The notes under the pieces were generated by a model. That model saw only the letters and a list, made by a program, of their open reading frames with translations. It ran no database searches and was not told the DNA's origin. Positions 24,260 to 58,095 of a stretch of DNA of 64,000 nt are shown here, piece by piece; position 1 is the stretch's first letter, and each line of letters begins with the position of its first letter. Made by a program: the position numbers and the translations under genes. Origin of the DNA: an uncultured Bdellovibrionales bacterium (GTDB lineage Bacteria; Bdellovibrionota; Bdellovibrionia; Bdellovibrionales; JAEYZS01); contig CAYXYF010000005.1 in the NCBI GenBank assembly GCA_964469265.1, positions 26,518 to 90,517 of the forward strand, read 5' to 3'.

Positions 24260-24312
24260 AATAGAAATTACCTAATTTATTAAAAGTATGTAAGTTCTAA
24301 TTGGGGGCCATT

Positions 24313-24933
24313 ATGAATAAGATAGCTATACTTGCAATTGCACTTTTGGTTGCAGACCTTGCTATCGCAGGGGACCGAGACAAGGAGAAGGCGAAGTTTG
24401 ATTTGATCTCATCTCTTGAAGAACTCATCAATATCGATGAATGCCGAAAGAGTGTGAAAACAAATTCTTCAGACTTAGACGATCTTCCAAGGCCATGTAA
24501 CAGCCTTCCGACACTCTCTAAGTTTTTCTTTAATAAGCAACCTAAGCTTGCAGACGTCCTGAAGTATCTAACGAATGAAGAGGCGCGCGTTTCTGAGGCT
24601 GCTTTAGAGGTTATGGATAAATACAAAATCCAGTCGCTTGGAAAAATGATTTTGTCGCCAAAGTGTGTGATCAATAACCGACCTGTGAATCTTGATATCT
24701 ACTTAAATAGATTGCGAGGCGTTCCTATAGCTGAAGAGCAAAGTGATGCAACCGTGCTGGAAGCGAAGTTTGAAGAAAACCTGAAAAAGAAAAAGCATAA
24801 CAATGATGACTTGATTCCAATGGCAACTCCTTCTGAAGCTCGGATACCAGCAAGGCTTCCCGACGCAACAAAACCTGAGCCCGAAAAACCTATAGGCGAA
24901 TTTGAAAAAGAATTTGCAGCGTTTGAAAACTAA
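24313..24933 (+). CDS. Secreted hypothetical protein
   Basis: Signal peptide MNKIAILAIALLVADLAIA; low-complexity Pro/Glu/Lys tail. Confidence 0.6.
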   Translation: MNKIAILAIALLVADLAIAGDRDKEKAKFDLISSLEELINIDECRKSVKTNSSDLDDLPRPCNSLPTLSKFFFNKQPKLADVLKYLTNEEARVSEAALEVMDKYKIQSLGKMILSPKCVINNRPVNLDIYLNRLRGVPIAEEQSDATVLEAKFEENLKKKKHNNDDLIPMATPSEARIPARLPDATKPEPEKPIGEFEKEFAAFEN

Positions 24934-46149: not shown

Positions 46150-46165
46150 TGCAAAGGTAGCGCCA
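46150..46165 (-). promoter_or_regulatory. sigma54 (-24/-12) promoter upstream of the ABC ATPase
   Basis: TGGCGCTACCTTTGCA on the minus strand, exact GG-N10-GC spacing. Confidence 0.6.
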
Positions 46166-46837: not shown

Positions 46838-47919
46838 TATCTGTGCCATTTCTGCTTAACGACTCTACACATATTTGAAATCGCAGAAGATCTTGCACAG
46901 TGATCGCGCGCAGATTCAAACCCTGCAACGATATCGGCGAAGTCCAAATTCTCTGGGGGAATGATTTCAAGCAGGCGCTCGAGAGTTTCTAAATATACTG
47001 TAACAGCTGGTTCAAAAAGTTTCGCTAATTCGGGATTTGCGTAGTCTTGGTAAAAATCTAAATAATTATGAAGTTTTTGTATCGGGTAAAATAATCCAAC
47101 TAGTCCGTGAACATGCATGCGAACATTTGGGTTATCGAGATTTTGACTCAATACGAATAAGCGATCGTCAGTAAGGTTATGGCTCAAATTGAAAACAGAT
47201 TGTTTGAGTTTTTCGATACTGTTTTTGTCATAATCTTGGTGCAATTGGAATTCTCTAAGCGCTCTATTAAACCTTTGAATGTGCGCAATGGTAGAAAGTG
47301 AATTTGATGGCGTTACAACTTTTTTTGGATCACATCGATAAACTGAAATGAGGTCGTTATCCCAGCTGGAGCTTGCGGTCCATGCCGTTAAGATGTCTTC
47401 ATTTGTTGTGATTTCCCATTTGTTGGCAAGGCTTGGACCGTGTTTATTGAAAGCATACTTTTCAGTGAGGTAAATAAATGAGTGCCCTGGCTCTGGCCCT
47501 CCGATTGTTATCCAGTCTCCAGCTTGGATGCCGTCTTCTTTATTAATATTGCGGCAAAATGAACTCTCAGACGAAAGATATAAGTCAGTAAGCTCTTTGC
47601 CCATCGTCATGTAAAGAAACTGATTAAAACCAAGGATATTTAACGAAAAATTATGGCAGTTGGGTCCACCTAAGGAAGACCGTTCAGCCAGGAGTTGATC
47701 AGCAATCGCAGCGGGCAGGCAACTTTTAAGGTCGATTGAATAACCAAAGCCAGTTTTTACAATGGCAGCGGAGCAAGTGGTCTTAAAAATTTTTTGAGTG
47801 GAAGCTCTTATTTTATGAAGTTCACTACTATCTGGATCAGAGACTATGGTTGAGGCATTGAGGCGGGTAGTAGTTAACGCCAACAAAAATAGGCAGCCTA
47901 TTGTTAAGACCTTAACCAT
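46834..47919 (-). CDS. Secreted hypothetical protein with NlpC/P60-like Cys-His pattern
   Basis: Signal peptide MVKVLTIGCLFLLALTTTRLNA; GPNCHN...AGDWITIG...HSFIYL...FNKHG. Alternative start at 47952. Confidence 0.6.
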   Translation of the reverse strand: MVKVLTIGCLFLLALTTTRLNASTIVSDPDSSELHKIRASTQKIFKTTCSAAIVKTGFGYSIDLKSCLPAAIADQLLAERSSLGGPNCHNFSLNILGFNQFLYMTMGKELTDLYLSSESSFCRNINKEDGIQAGDWITIGGPEPGHSFIYLTEKYAFNKHGPSLANKWEITTNEDILTAWTASSSWDNDLISVYRCDPKKVVTPSNSLSTIAHIQRFNRALREFQLHQDYDKNSIEKLKQSVFNLSHNLTDDRLFVLSQNLDNPNVRMHVHGLVGLFYPIQKLHNYLDFYQDYANPELAKLFEPAVTVYLETLERLLEIIPPENLDFADIVAGFESARDHCARSSAISNMCRVVKQKWHRY

Positions 47920-47964
47920 TGTACTTCTTGTTAGTCCGCGGATGGGTTTCATGCCCGTAACTAA

Positions 47965-47980
47965 TGCAACCCCTAGTCCA
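47965..47980 (-). promoter_or_regulatory. sigma54 (-24/-12) promoter of the secreted protein
   Basis: TGGACTAGGGGTTGCA on the minus strand, exact GG-N10-GC spacing. Confidence 0.5.
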
Positions 47981-48175
47981 GCCTAAAATAGTTGTTAAAT
48001 TGTTGCCCCCAACTCATAAAAATGGGGACGGACCCCATCGTATGAGCGAAAAACGTCTCTGTGCTAAAACCCTAATCACGAGGGATAATTATTAGTAAAA
48101 TTAATAACTTGCTCTAGAGATGAGGCTCTGAGTGTCTGAATTCTGGAAAATGCGGGTGGTATGAGAGGCTATTAG

Positions 48176-48188
48176 AATCAATAAATTG
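48176..48188 (+). promoter_or_regulatory. IHF-binding site
   Basis: AATCAA-TAAA-TTG matches WATCAANNNNTTR, 20 bp upstream of a sigma54 -24 element. Confidence 0.6.
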
Positions 48189-48208
48189 CTTTAGAGTTTG
48201 GCCAGCGC

Positions 48209-48224
48209 TGGCATCAGGCTTGCT
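48209..48224 (+). promoter_or_regulatory. sigma54 (-24/-12) promoter with no downstream CDS
   Basis: TGGCATCAGGCTTGCT, close to consensus TGGCACG-N4-TTGCW. Confidence 0.75.
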
Positions 48225-48234
48225 CTATATATAA

Positions 48235-48297
48235 GTAACTCATTCATCCCCCTCCCCTAAGCGGTCTTGGTTCCCCCACCAGGACCGCAATTTTTTT
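48235..48297 (+). ncRNA. Candidate C-rich small regulatory RNA (~63 nt)
   Basis: Lies between a sigma54 promoter and a + strand terminator; no ORF; contains CATCCCCCTCCCCT and loop TTCCCCCA. The 5' end is inferred. Confidence 0.6.
48261..48297 (+). terminator. Intrinsic terminator, + strand
   Basis: GCGGTCTTGG/CCAGGACCGC 10-bp stem (G.U wobble only on +) followed by AA and T7. Confidence 0.8.
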
Positions 48298-48301
48298 GGG
48301 G

Positions 48302-49054
48302 CTATGAAGTCCTATTAGCAATACTCTTTAAGAACTCGGTGACCCTGGCTTTATACGTTTCAGGAAAGCTTTTAAGACCATCTAGATGTTTGCCTTCAGG
48401 TAGATTAAGAACTTCAAGATCAATGTGTGAATGCCCATGAAAGGCCTTCTCGATACAACTTGCTGGAACTAAGGGATCTTGCCACCCTCTAATAGATAAG
48501 ATCGGAAATCCTTTTGGAAGAGAGGCAAGATCGCGTTTGATTTGTTTTTCGTGACTGATAGTCCAAATACCGCGCGCAAAAGCATTAAAGCCGATTTTTT
48601 TAATCGGATTTTTTAGAGGATAGTAGTGAGTATAAAAGTTCCAGTTACATCTTAGTAACTCAAAAAACGGCCCGCCATCACAAATAAAACCAGTGATATC
48701 CTTCGTACCTCTTAATCGTATGGCCTCAAGTGCTGCAGAGGATGGATTTGAAAACCCGTAGAGTATTTTATTTCCTGGGATAGCGTCCAAAACATCAGTG
48801 ATTTCTTTAGACCAAATATGCTTAAGCCCCCAACCATTAGGAAGAGCTTCGGGCAATTGTTTGTAAATTTTTTTAAGCTTATAGGACAGATTAAAAATAA
48901 CAGAATCAAACCCAATCTCCGCCAAAAACTCCGCATGACGTTTCATATTCTGCTTCTTACCAAAAAAGAAGGGCACAAACACAACAGTCTCAGCATACTT
49001 TTTAACAGAAGCCTTAACAAGCTCCCCATTATTAATTAGTTTCAAGTGCGCCAT
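48302..49054 (-). CDS. Alpha/beta hydrolase fold protein
   Basis: YGFSNP elbow-like motif, ICDGGP, GWQDPLV, GKH; start at MAHLKL. Confidence 0.7.
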   Translation of the reverse strand: MAHLKLINNGELVKASVKKYAETVVFVPFFFGKKQNMKRHAEFLAEIGFDSVIFNLSYKLKKIYKQLPEALPNGWGLKHIWSKEITDVLDAIPGNKILYGFSNPSSAALEAIRLRGTKDITGFICDGGPFFELLRCNWNFYTHYYPLKNPIKKIGFNAFARGIWTISHEKQIKRDLASLPKGFPILSIRGWQDPLVPASCIEKAFHGHSHIDLEVLNLPEGKHLDGLKSFPETYKARVTEFLKSIANRTS

Positions 49055-49091
49055 AAAACGTTTCCCAAAGAACGAGCTTAATTTAACGAGA

Positions 49092-49217
49092 GAGTGAGAA
49101 AAATAAAATTTCTTAAAACGAGTTCCGCAGCTTTGCAATAACTTATGCCAGCTCCGCTGGCGTAAGTTTTGTTGGGAGGACTGTCTGAGGCTTTAAGAAA
49201 TTTTATTTTTCTCACTC
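49092..49217. repeat. 126-bp element bounded by a perfect 26-bp inverted repeat, with internal hairpin
   Basis: GAGTGAGAAAAATAAAATTTCTTAAA (49092-49117)/TTTAAGAAATTTTATTTTTCTCACTC (49192-49217); inner AACTTATGCCAG/CTGGCGTAAGTT (49140-49168). Confidence 0.85.
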
Positions 49218-55337: not shown

Positions 55338-56633
55338 ATGATGGCAACATTAGAGTTTAAGCTACCAGATATTGGTGAGGGTGTAACCGAAGGTGAATTG
55401 ATTCAGTGGCTTGTAAAAGCTGGAGATTCTGTGAACCAAGATCAACCTCTTGCTGAAATCATGACAGATAAAGCGACTGTTGAAATCCCAAGTCCTCAAA
55501 AAGGTACAGTGAAAGAGACCAAACACAATGCTGGCGATATTATTAAAGTCGGCACGGTTATGCTTGTGATGGAAACTGGTGGAGCGAGCGCGCCAAAGCA
55601 AGCAGAACCACCTGCAACTCCAGAGGCTCCAAAGACGCAAGCATCACCATCGTCTAAACCTCAAGCAGCTGCTGCAAAAAGCAATAACGGTTCTGGCCAC
55701 TTTGCTGATGTACAACCTCCAGTGGCACAAAGCCATGTTCTTGCGTCCCCAAGTACAAGACGACTTGCAAGAGAAATGGGTGTTGATATTAATAGCCTAA
55801 AAGGAACTGGGCCTATCGGAAGAGTCACTCGTGATGATGTTTCTGGGGCAAGCTCGGGTGGTGGCCTTGAGACCTACGCAAAATCAACGCCTTCTATTCC
55901 AAGAGCAGGATATCAAGGCCCCGTGGGTGCAGTTGAAGAAAGAGTTCCACTTCGCGGTGTAAGAAGATTGATCGCCGAGAGAATGCAGCTTGCAAAACAT
56001 ATCGTTCCACACTTTTCTTTAATGGATGAAGCAAACGTTACAGCGCTTGTTGAGATGAGAGAAGGTCTTAAAAAGAAAGCTGAAAAATATGGCGTTAAGG
56101 TCACTTACCTTCCGTTTCTCATGAAGGCTCTTATTGCGACAATGAGAGAGTTTCCGAAATTTAGTGCAAGCATTGATGATGAAGCCCAAGAAATTGTTTA
56201 CAAGAAATATTTCAATATTGGTTTTGCAGCAGACACAGATAACGGCTTAGTTGTTCCTGTAGTAAAGAACGCAGACCAAAAAACGATTCTAGAAATCTCT
56301 CGTGAAATCGTTGAGCTTTCATCTAAGGCACGCGCAGGAAAACTAGCACCAGATGATATGAAGGGCGGAACAATCAGTATTACAAACATTGGTAGTATTG
56401 GTGGCGCTTATGCAACTCCGATTATTAATCATCCAGAAGTTGCAATTTTAGGAATGTATAAAATTACTGAAAAACCAATTATCAAAGACGGACAGCTTGC
56501 TGCAATTAAAGTCATGAACCTATCTATCACCGCAGACCATAGATTAATTGATGGTGCGGAGGCTGCAAGATTCCTTCAGGCGTTCATTGAGCGCTTAGAG
56601 AACCCAGGCGTTCTAATGTTGGATTTGGTATAA
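55338..56633 (+). CDS. pdhC: Dihydrolipoamide acyltransferase E2 (single lipoyl domain)
   Basis: LPDIGEGVTEG, MTDKATVE lipoyl-lysine, ASPSTRRLARE PSBD, DHRLIDG. Confidence 0.88.
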   Translation: MMATLEFKLPDIGEGVTEGELIQWLVKAGDSVNQDQPLAEIMTDKATVEIPSPQKGTVKETKHNAGDIIKVGTVMLVMETGGASAPKQAEPPATPEAPKTQASPSSKPQAAAAKSNNGSGHFADVQPPVAQSHVLASPSTRRLAREMGVDINSLKGTGPIGRVTRDDVSGASSGGGLETYAKSTPSIPRAGYQGPVGAVEERVPLRGVRRLIAERMQLAKHIVPHFSLMDEANVTALVEMREGLKKKAEKYGVKVTYLPFLMKALIATMREFPKFSASIDDEAQEIVYKKYFNIGFAADTDNGLVVPVVKNADQKTILEISREIVELSSKARAGKLAPDDMKGGTISITNIGSIGGAYATPIINHPEVAILGMYKITEKPIIKDGQLAAIKVMNLSITADHRLIDGAEAARFLQAFIERLENPGVLMLDLV

Positions 56634-56652
56634 ACAGATTTCGGAGAAAACT

Positions 56653-58095
56653 ATGTTAAATTTTGATGTTTGCGTGATCGGATCAGGACCTGGCGGATAT
56701 GTAGCAGCAATTCGTGCATCACAGTTGGGTTTAAAAACTTGTATCGTTGAACGAGAAAAGCTTGGCGGTGTTTGTCTTAATGTCGGTTGTATTCCGTCCA
56801 AGGCAATGATCACGGCCTCTCATTTCTATCATAAAGTTCATAACGACGCTGCAACAATGGGAATCAAGATCGGCGGAAAGGTTTCTGTCGATATGCCAAC
56901 TCTGGCTGACTGGAAACAAAGTGTCTGTGACAGAATGTCCATGGGTGTAAACCAATTATTAAAAGGCAATAAAGCAGAAGTCATAATGGGTGAGGCATCT
57001 TTTGAGTCAAAGGACGTGCTTGTCGTTAAATCAAAAGATAAGACTGAGAAAATCAAAGCAAAAAACTTTATTGTTGCAACGGGTTCTAGACCTATTGAAA
57101 TCCCAGGATTTAAATTTGATGAAAAGACCGTGATGTCTTCCACTGGCGCGCTTGATCTTCAAGAGCTTCCTAAAAAGCTTGTTGTTATCGGCGGCGGTTA
57201 TATCGGGCTTGAAATCGCAGGCTACTTATCCAAGCTAGGAACTGAAATCACTGTTCTTGAAGCAAATAAAGATGTTTTATTTGGTGCCGCCGACAAAGAA
57301 TGCGTACAAGTTGTTGTGCGAAAAATAAAAAAACAAGGCGTTACAATTTTAACTGAAGCAAAAGCAAAATCCTTTGCAAAAAAAGGAAACGGCGTTGAAG
57401 TCGTTGCAGACATCAAAGGTAAAGAAGAAAAAATTGGAGCTGATAAAATTTTAGTTACTGTAGGACGTAAACCCAACTCTGATCAAATGAACTTAAAAGG
57501 CATCGGCATTCAAATTGATGAGCGTGGTTTCTTAAAGGTCAATTCAAAGCGACAAACCAGTATTGCAAACATTTATGCTATTGGTGATATCGCTTGCCAG
57601 CCAATGCTTGCGCACAAGGCTTCCCATGAGGGAGTTCTAGTTGCAGAAGTTATTGCAGGTAAGAATAGAGCATTCGATGTAAAGACAGTACCTGCCGTGA
57701 TCTTTACGGATCCAGAAATTGCTGCTGCGGGAATGACAGAAGACGAAGCCAAAGAAAAAGGGTTTGCAGATCTTAAGGTGGCAAAGTTTCCTTTCGCCGC
57801 AAACGGCAGAGCCGTTTCTATGATGGATACCGATGGTTTTATTAAGATCGTTGCAAACGCAAAAAACAACCTTGTTCTTGGGGTGCATATTGTCGGACCA
57901 GAGGCGAGCAACCTTATTTCTGAGGCGGCTTTAGCCATCGAGATGGGCGCAACACTTGAAGACATTGCGTTGACCATCCATCCGCATCCAACACTCGGTG
58001 AGACAATGATGGAAGCTGCAGAGGCCACTCTTGGTCACGCGATTCACATCATTCAAAGACCATTAAAAGAAAAACGACCAAGCGCTCAGGCTTAG
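56653..58095 (+). CDS. lpdA: Dihydrolipoyl dehydrogenase E3
   Basis: GSGPGGY, GGVCLNVGCIPSK, IGGGYIGLE, HPHPTLGE. Confidence 0.97.
   Translation: MLNFDVCVIGSGPGGYVAAIRASQLGLKTCIVEREKLGGVCLNVGCIPSKAMITASHFYHKVHNDAATMGIKIGGKVSVDMPTLADWKQSVCDRMSMGVNQLLKGNKAEVIMGEASFESKDVLVVKSKDKTEKIKAKNFIVATGSRPIEIPGFKFDEKTVMSSTGALDLQELPKKLVVIGGGYIGLEIAGYLSKLGTEITVLEANKDVLFGAADKECVQVVVRKIKKQGVTILTEAKAKSFAKKGNGVEVVADIKGKEEKIGADKILVTVGRKPNSDQMNLKGIGIQIDERGFLKVNSKRQTSIANIYAIGDIACQPMLAHKASHEGVLVAEVIAGKNRAFDVKTVPAVIFTDPEIAAAGMTEDEAKEKGFADLKVAKFPFAANGRAVSMMDTDGFIKIVANAKNNLVLGVHIVGPEASNLISEAALAIEMGATLEDIALTIHPHPTLGETMMEAAEATLGHAIHIIQRPLKEKRPSAQA

Follow-up and report, generated by a model that had tools for sequence, protein, structure and literature searches.

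In the genome of an uncultured Bdellovibrionales bacterium, two minus-strand genes are separated by a 349-bp gap, and the question raised by this locus is whether the gap holds a small RNA (sRNA) gene of its own. The locus belongs to a 64,000-nt stretch of contig CAYXYF010000005.1, called here the window, to which all positions refer unless another locus is named. A preliminary description had proposed an undescribed C-rich sRNA at 48176–48297, transcribed from a sigma-54 promoter and equipped with its own integration host factor (IHF) site and terminator. Comparison with related genomes indicated that the element is very probably a genuine RNA gene under selection, with a promoter of the sigma-54 type (Table 1). 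Since the motifs taken alone are at marginal or chance level, the observation exceeds chance only through its conservation.

Conservation of the promoter and the predicted RNA

The contigs of relatives, which come from metagenomes and metagenome-assembled genomes (MAGs), were fetched with the use of hydrolase homologs 57–71% identical to the protein encoded next to the element, and one further locus (L010) was obtained by a DNA pattern scan. This gave 11 distinct copies in 9 independent loci of uncultured Bdellovibrionota (the window, L001, L010, L029, L002, L022, L023, L025, and L030); L024 is identical to L023 and was not counted separately. Two loci, L002 and L022, contain tandem pairs (two copies each), in which every duplicate has its own promoter, terminator, and upstream block B, described below. 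The promoter, the C-rich tracts, and the stem were all kept in these relatives. The DNA identity to the window copy was 75–98% in the RNA, 60–68% in the hydrolase coding DNA, and ~50% in the 90 nt upstream of the promoter. The element was always located between the hydrolase gene and an O-methyltransferase gene, wherever that flank was readable.

Sigma-54 promoters have GG and GC placed exactly 10 nt apart within TGGCAC-N5-TTGCW. The near-consensus promoter noted earlier at 48209–48224 fits TGGCAY-N5-TTGCW and has this -24/-12 arrangement, and its TGGCA and TTGC blocks are unchanged in all 11 copies. The pattern matched once in the window (0.17 matches expected), and at least one match occurred in 16 of 100 shuffles, which is marginal alone. 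The 5-nt spacer differed in almost every copy (CAGGC, CGCAC, TCGAC, CGCGC, CGTGC, CCCAC, CGTGA, TTGCG, CGACG, and CCCTC). In alignment A1, which extends from the promoter to the terminator, no insertion or deletion was found between the -12 element and AGTA; this motif is invariant and lies at the predicted RNA start, at the distance typical of sigma-54. Invariant blocks with a free spacer between them, in a fixed register to AGTA, therefore indicate that selection acts on a -24/-12 promoter rather than on a sigma-70 promoter or an encoded peptide. Dependence on sigma-54 (RpoN) and an activator is predicted from the DNA. RpoN is encoded by cultured members of the phylum, both Bdellovibrio (bd0843; PMC3464611) and Bacteriovorax marinus (PMC3526173). 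Sigma-54-type promoters were also found upstream of neighbouring protein genes in the loci studied here, so this type of promoter seems to be in use in the clade.

The RNA predicted from 48235 to 48297 folds with -20.2 kcal/mol (z = -6.3), and none of 200 shuffled sequences folded as well. The minimum-energy structure accounts for 84% of the ensemble and leaves the first 26 nt unpaired. The two exposed C-rich tracts of the preliminary description were confirmed as present, unpaired, and conserved: the 5′ tract CAUUCAUCC plus the C run was kept in 11 of 11 copies, and UCCCCC of the loop is invariant (Table 1). The complement of the seed reads as a G run followed by AUGAAUG, in agreement with the earlier remark that it resembles a Shine-Dalgarno sequence with a start codon.

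The 10-bp GC stem and the T7 tract were also found where they had been placed. The stem contains a G.U pair, T48267 with G48282, which works on the plus strand only and turns into an A/C mismatch on the minus strand. A G+C-rich stem-loop is followed here by a U tract on the transcribed strand, as in an intrinsic terminator, and each copy has a run of 6–9 T after the stem, confined to the RNA strand. On the minus strand the hairpin is followed by UUAGGGG (UUAGGGGAGG) and no U tract, so it is not the terminator of the convergent hydrolase gene. Hfq-dependent sRNAs bind Hfq through a 3′ hairpin and a poly-U tail; the predicted RNA carries a 3′ hairpin and U7.

The genes around the element differ between loci. 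In the window, L002, L022, and L010 the element and the hydrolase gene are convergent; on the same strand, the element is followed by a gene for a secreted protein of 236 or 283 aa in L001 and L029, and of 355–380 aa in L023, L025, and L030. The unit keeps its promoter and terminator in both settings. As the preliminary description had supposed, the hairpin is not merely a hydrolase terminator: it travels with the promoter and the seed, also in the five loci where another gene intervenes, and not with the 3′ end of the hydrolase gene.

The stem is supported by covariation. In the alignment, 96% of the cells were paired, with changes on both sides in 4 of 10 pairs, compared with 25–47% paired cells in slid controls, and the observed score was reached by 0 of 500 shuffles. 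RNAalifold independently predicted the same stem, with compensatory changes in 5 of 11 pairs. The covariance model R1 gave 94.7 bits for the window copy, which was the only copy in the window, also with the filters off.

The pattern scan (CTCATTCATCCCC-N8-32-TTCCCCCA) of GTDB genome contigs yielded one true match, L010, and 8 chance matches; in JGI metagenome contigs it yielded no true match and 8 chance matches. Neither regular expression nor covariance model detected a copy in the distant syntenic loci L026 and L027 (hydrolase 43–46% identical) or on L028, a short contig with 280 nt beyond the hydrolase gene. A blastn search of plasmid and phage collections gave no match to the sRNA.

Two observations concern the elements themselves. 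The upstream ("a") tandem copy in L002 and L022 has an uninterrupted C6–C10 run in place of CCCCCUCCCC and a longer T tract, and its stem differs by compensatory changes (G-C to A-U). The stretch downstream of the promoter had been described as ~63 nt with no open reading frame (ORF); the elements are as described, but a 57-aa ORF with a TTG start (48267–48440, plus strand) begins inside the stem. We do not consider this ORF a real gene because it is antisense to the hydrolase gene.

Table 1. Coordinates of the sRNA element, its upstream region, and associated features (window positions unless a locus is named)
Feature	Position	Strand	Remarks
Predicted sRNA, ~60–63 nt	48235–48297	+	start predicted at G48235 (or A48234), 12 nt after the -12 C
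Sigma-54-type promoter TGGCAT-CAGGC-TTGCT (TGGCATCAGGCTTGCT)	48209–48224	+	-24 GG at 48210–48211, -12 GC at 48222–48223, 10 nt apart
Unpaired C-rich 5′ seed CATTCATCCCCCTCCCCT (RNA CAUUCAUCCCCCUCCCCU)	48241–48258	+	single-stranded in minimum-energy and centroid folds
Terminator hairpin, 10-bp stem	48261–48288	+	GCGGTCTTGG (48261–48270) pairs with CCAGGACCGC (48279–48288)
Hairpin loop TTCCCCCA (RNA UUCCCCCA), second C-rich tract	48271–48278	+	UCCCCC invariant across copies
T7 tract of the intrinsic terminator	48291–48297	+	after AA following the stem
IHF site of the preliminary description, AATCAATAAATTG	48176–48188	+	fits consensus WATCAANNNNTTR; 21–33 nt upstream of the -24 element
IHF-like site AATTAATAACTTG	48099–48111	+	differs from WATCAANNNNTTR at one position; at about -105, halfway from block B to the promoter
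Block B, CGAAAAACGTC (48047–48057), then dyad-like TGTGC-N11-TCACG (48060–48080)	48047–48080	+	candidate activator-binding site
Motif A, two GCAACAAT-like half sites	47989–48006		minus strand reads GGCAACAATTTAACAACTA; candidate distal enhancer element
Terminator-like hairpin GGGGTCCGTCCCC and ATTTTTA	48027–48039	-	between motif A and block B
Weaker sigma-54-like site TGGACT-AGGGG-TTGCA	47965–47980	-	immediately precedes the gene for the 372-aa secreted protein; divergent from the sRNA
Secreted-looking protein, 372 aa	46834–47952	-	no Pfam match
Hydrolase-like protein, 250 aa	48302–49054	-	no Pfam match; homologs named alpha/beta hydrolase or carboxylesterase
E1-type thiamine-diphosphate enzyme, 953 aa	49230–52091	-	co-oriented with the hydrolase gene, which comes after it
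Near-consensus sigma-54-type promoter TGGCGC-TACCT-TTGCA	46150–46165	-	~165 nt upstream of the fused OppD/F-like ABC ATPase gene (start probably 45973)
Tandem sRNA copies, ~262 bp apart	L002 3752–4102; L022 3750–4103	-	
Sigma-54-type promoters of the 355–380-aa secreted-protein gene, CGGCAC/CGGTAT-N5-TTGCT	L023 4897–4912; L025 3878–3893; L030 2813–2828	-	followed by the same TATATA-rich stretch

Elements upstream of the promoter

The control region was compared by alignment of the 300 nt 5′ of each copy, with 10 copies examined. Three conserved elements, namely motif A, block B, and an IHF-like site, were found amid otherwise diverged sequence. Measured from the T of TGGCA, the CCAAAAACGTC-like block B lies at -161/-162 in eight of the 10 copies and at -154/-155 in two, and identity is just ~50% in the stretch that separates it from the promoter. 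The dyad-like sequence after block B has the family form TGTGA-N11-TCACA. Since block B precedes both members of the tandem pairs, the repeat unit of ~262 bp spans from block B to the terminator. Eight of the 10 copies have motif A, in either orientation, ~170–240 nt before the -24 element; it is missing before the second copy of the tandem pairs. In several copies it forms the dyad TGCAA-N5-TTGCA; its half sites are inverted in the window and L001.

In the case of the IHF site at 48176–48188 the preliminary description was partly right. The consensus is present at this position, but it is perfect in only 2 of 11 copies (the window and L029) and has one mismatch in L001; it lies in a second A/T-rich stretch, which elsewhere is degraded to A/T-rich AAAATCA(A/T)T. 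Its occurrence is not significant in the window as a whole (7 matches to the IHF consensus vs 6.0 expected). The site at 48099–48111 is better conserved: at about -105 the consensus is perfect in 4 of 10 copies and has one mismatch in three, the window included, and TCA-N5-CTTR is common to most. IHF may bind upstream of the sRNA gene, as judged from these motifs.

The upstream activator sequence of a bacterial enhancer-binding protein (bEBP) is typically located ~80–200 bp upstream of a sigma-54 promoter, often with an IHF site between them, and transcription from such a promoter requires RpoN and ATP hydrolysis by the bEBP. The proposed sigma-54 layout, with an IHF-like site between the enhancer and the -24 box, agrees with the conserved blocks at fixed upstream distances. 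Distal conserved sites, a putative bend site, and a -24/-12 element fit an enhancer-dependent layout, as for glmY/glmZ (PMC3045617). The upstream motifs matched no recognised bEBP site.

Weighing the interpretation against its alternatives

Taken as a whole, we interpret the locus as a free-standing gene for a ~60-nt sRNA of an undescribed family in an uncultured clade of Bdellovibrionota, with enhancer-dependent sigma-54 transcription and repression in trans by anti-Shine-Dalgarno pairing, and we give this a probability of about 0.62. Several points weigh against it. Transcription of the RNA is a prediction from the DNA. Neither an rpoN gene nor an activator gene (GAFTGA or ELFGH signature) was found within the 64-kb window. 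The covariation statistics are modest (11 sequences from one clade). An RNAduplex search of the whole window, the translation-initiation regions, and all related loci gave no convincing target; only the RNA's own antisense stood out, with -51.8 kcal/mol for the strongest duplex in the window. Two further points of the same kind, possible read-through into an adjoining gene and a readable sigma-70 promoter, are given below with the alternatives that they favour.

The failure to find a target has little weight because only ~160 kb of relevant genomes could be searched. A G5 Shine-Dalgarno sequence was present in only 2 of roughly 55 window genes, those for the ABC ATPase (start 45973) and for a lipoprotein (start 24313). 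The sigma-54-type promoter of the ABC ATPase gene is conserved in L002 (4995–5010, plus strand) and L029 (5524–5539, plus strand), and the Shine-Dalgarno sequence of this gene is a G5 run, complementary to the C tracts of the sRNA, in the window, L002, and L029. The pairing of its 5′ untranslated region (UTR) was no better than that of shuffled UTRs (p = 0.06, 0.40, 0.54, and 0.24), which also counts against the proposed mode of action, and block B and motif A were absent upstream of its promoter in the window. The second gene encodes a putative lipoprotein of 206 aa; apart from a 5-nt bulge, its start region UUGGGGGCCAUUAUGAAU (24303–24320, plus strand) corresponds to the complement of the seed (G run ... 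AUGAAU). This gene is a candidate target.

It is unlikely that the element is a real sRNA acting as a sponge or decoy, in which the C-rich tracts would titrate a protein or another RNA and not block a ribosome-binding site. The lack of an mRNA target in the ~160 kb would suit such a role, and there is a precedent in decoy RNAs with sigma-54 promoters, GlmY (PMC3045617, PMC4152352) and CrcZ (PMC5113210). It is opposed by the conserved CAUUCAU beside the C run, since the complement, G run plus AUGAAUG, has the look of a ribosome-binding site with its start codon. Moreover, we know of no bacterial RNA-binding regulator that recognises C runs.

We regard as quite unlikely a cis-acting role, in which the element would be a sigma-54-driven leader or attenuator, the hairpin and U tract a conditional terminator for a downstream same-strand gene, and the free-standing copies remnants. 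The observation most favourable to it comes from L001 and L029, where the secreted-protein gene starts 10–20 nt past the T tract. This leaves no room for a separate promoter, and read-through, hence a role in cis, is possible; the downstream genes of these two loci are weakly homologous to each other. Such a leader cannot be the general role, because four loci (the window, L002, L022, and L010) have no same-strand gene downstream, the next gene being the convergent hydrolase, and in three (L023, L025, and L030) a separate sigma-54-type promoter, 75–190 nt past the terminator, precedes the downstream gene. In addition, the genes downstream of the sRNA come from unrelated families, the tandem copies directly succeed each other, and no alternative anti-terminator fold was found beside the dominant structure. 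In L023, L025, and L030, the RNA and the secreted-protein gene are tandem sigma-54 units, given the separate promoter of the latter, and a common upstream enhancer may serve both.

Cis-antisense interplay with the hydrolase/E1 operon, as a further or alternative role in genomes of the window type, appears improbable. Here, a read-through transcript of the operon would be fully complementary to the RNA. The arrangement in the window is convergent, with 4 nt between the hydrolase stop codon and the T tract, the minus strand has no terminator at the hairpin, and its next terminator-like hairpin occurs only at 48039–48027; the top predicted duplex, as already mentioned, is that with the RNA's own antisense. 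On the other hand, a gene intervenes in 5 of the 9 loci, and because the convergent arrangement is not conserved, an antisense role cannot account for a seed that is kept throughout the family. Transcription of the hydrolase operon probably continues across the sRNA gene in window-type genomes, so the antisense interaction is a plausible side effect, not a conserved one.

Very improbable, in our opinion, is transcription from a sigma-70 promoter, with a coincidental resemblance to sigma-54. The -35 element would be CTGGCA or TTGGCA, followed by a 16-nt spacer and a -10 element TATAAG or TATAAA. TTGGCA-N16-TATAAG/TATAAA is readable as a weak sigma-70 promoter: TTGGCA, present in L010, L029, and L030, matches TTGACA in 5 of 6 positions, and an A/T-rich TATA-like stretch is suitably spaced. 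Against this, TTGC (-15 to -12) is unchanged in 11 of 11 copies although it would be part of the spacer, the putative -10 element ends in G or A and not in T, and a sigma-70 scan called no promoter here. A sigma-70 start would also land within the conserved CUCAUUC, downstream of the invariant AGTA, and the GG-N10-GC, TTGC[AT] architecture recurs before neighbouring genes without a -35-like context.

Finally, it is hardly credible that the conservation serves the minus strand, as a small ORF (GGAGG...ATGAATGAG..., MNELLIY...) or as the 3′ UTR or terminator of the hydrolase operon: a Shine-Dalgarno sequence and an ATG do open an 18-codon frame in the window, and the hydrolase stop codon is close to the T tract, but the frame length varies among relatives (13, 18, or more than 20 codons), the "peptide" is merely the complement of the promoter, with two invariant blocks, a free 5-nt spacer, and no codon periodicity, and both readings were rejected on these grounds together with the missing minus-strand U tract and the genes that separate the element from the hydrolase gene in five loci.

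The surrounding locus, known small RNAs, and the proposed mechanism

The G+C content of the window is ~41%, and the closest named relatives of its RecA and neighbouring proteins are encoded by uncultured Bdellovibrionota/Bdellovibrionales MAGs. The gene for the 372-aa protein on one side of the gap has no counterpart in the related loci, and its likely start is the second Met (signal-peptide-like MVKVLTIGCLF...). On the other side, the hydrolase ORF was listed as 48302–49138 (minus strand; 278 aa from a TTG start) and is probably 250 aa long from MAHLKL, as judged by homolog lengths. About 3 kb from the E1 gene, ORFs at 55338–58092 (plus strand) resemble the 2-oxoacid dehydrogenase components E2 (lipoyl acyltransferase) and E3, their translations having been judged by eye. 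With these and the E1-type gene nearby, the sRNA locus adjoins genes of central metabolism.

Should the weaker sigma-54-like site at 47965–47980 be genuine, the 230-bp gap would serve for divergent control by sigma-54, with block B used in common. In the window, 29 matches to the looser pattern GG-N8-TTGCW were counted (18 expected). The minus-strand hairpin at 48027–48039 may end the read-through of the hydrolase/E1 operon after it has crossed the sRNA gene; in L001 another hairpin occupies the corresponding site. A chance-level match to DapZ (E = 8.9) overlaps this hairpin.

The search of the whole window with Rfam 15 (4227 models) at the gathering score gave no match, a result that extends to Qrr, GlmY/GlmZ, and RsaE insofar as these are among the models. 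At E <= 10 over 47900–48500, there were three chance-level matches (E 7–9), none of which overlaps the RNA. No sigma-54 small RNA of Bdellovibrio is described in the searched literature, where the only Bdellovibrio survey found reported eight attack-phase RNAs of B. bacteriovorus, three of them with a FliA motif and none with a sigma-54 promoter (PMC3627812). All eight are larger than the sRNA studied here (PMC3627812). The RNA may therefore be called undescribed, as proposed, in the sense that it falls into no Rfam 15 family and into none of the searched literature.

Among described systems, Pxr of Myxococcus and other myxobacteria has an apparent sigma-54 promoter, an upstream enhancer site, and a rho-independent terminator, and in some genera it occurs as tandem paralogs that have a sigma-54 promoter each (PMC5568312). 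The element resembles it as an sRNA of a formerly "delta-proteobacterial" lineage with a sigma-54-type promoter, a terminator, and tandem copies with own promoters. It differs in being ~60 nt long with one hairpin, in having no activator gene nearby, and in lacking sequence or structure similarity (no Rfam family match even at E <= 10). To our knowledge, Pxr has no comparable C-rich seed.

The Qrr RNAs of Vibrionaceae (LuxO/sigma-54) are short and trans-acting, occur as one to several siblings, and pair at ribosome-binding sites through a single-stranded seed followed by a terminator hairpin. Their control by sigma-54 and a bEBP is described in PMC10162802. The predicted RNA shares with them its small size, the type of promoter, sibling copies, a conserved single-stranded seed, and the terminator hairpin, whereas it has no Rfam match, a C-rich seed, and belongs to another phylum. 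The upstream motifs also differ, being TGCAA-N5-TTGCA and CCAAAAACGTC here, unlike the LuxO site TTGCA-N3-TGCAA.

In the case of glmY/glmZ of Enterobacteriaceae, a sigma-54 -24/-12 promoter is preceded by GlrR sites more than 100 bp upstream, with IHF sites between (PMC3045617). The likeness is in the promoter architecture of a small-RNA gene; the RNA itself is unrelated (no Rfam match), GlmY being a protein decoy and GlmZ an activator of glmS. GlrR-type sites have the form TGTC-N10-GACA, and none was evident in the upstream sequence examined here.

RsaE/RoxS of Firmicutes pair through exposed C-rich tracts with G-rich Shine-Dalgarno regions and repress translation (PMC6158497, PMC5419742). 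Several exposed C-rich tracts are common to these RNAs, to RNAIII, LhrC, and RepG, and to the RNA described here, for which a shared mode of action is suggested by analogy. The phylum, the RNA fold, and the transcriptional control differ, and there is no Rfam match; CAUUCAU is also conserved here beside the C run. RsaE/RoxS respond to SrrAB/ResDE and Rex, not to sigma-54. In regulation and gene organisation, Pxr, Qrr, and GlmY/GlmZ come closest; in the proposed mode of action, the C-rich anti-Shine-Dalgarno RNAs do. Because there is no family-model match and the size, fold, and seed differ, the sRNA belongs to none of them.

According to the mechanism that we propose, RNA polymerase with sigma-54 would start from the promoter at 48209–48224, driven by an enhancer-binding activator at ~160–215 bp upstream (block B, possibly motif A), and DNA bending at the A/T-rich IHF-like sites in between would assist activation. 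The transcript would begin at about 48235, end at its own intrinsic terminator (48261–48297), and leave both C-rich tracts exposed, namely CAUUCAUCCCCCUCCCC in the 5′ seed and UUCCCCCA in the loop. These would pair in trans with the G-rich Shine-Dalgarno and start-codon regions of target mRNAs, so that ribosome binding is blocked and translation repressed. Occlusion of G-rich ribosome-binding sites is the most likely mode, given the Shine-Dalgarno-like complement of the seed with its start codon, and we rate action by anti-Shine-Dalgarno pairing as somewhat better than an even chance.

As a speculation of low probability, the sRNA could be the output of a dedicated bEBP/sigma-54 sensory pathway in predatory Bdellovibrio-like bacteria, a master switch like Qrr or Pxr. 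The siblings and the neighbouring sigma-54-driven genes for secreted proteins and a peptide transporter would then form one regulon, and the anti-Shine-Dalgarno-like seed would silence mRNAs with G5-type ribosome-binding sites, for example, at a life-cycle or nutritional transition.

The regulation by small RNAs in Bdellovibrionota is almost uncharted. The family, so far seen only in uncultured organisms, is an example of an enhancer-dependent small RNA in this phylum that is supported by comparative genomics, with a defined promoter, candidate enhancer elements, and a seed. It adds an independent case to the design of sigma-54-driven sibling small RNAs, as in Qrr and Pxr, and to the design of the C-rich anti-Shine-Dalgarno seed, as in RsaE/RoxS.

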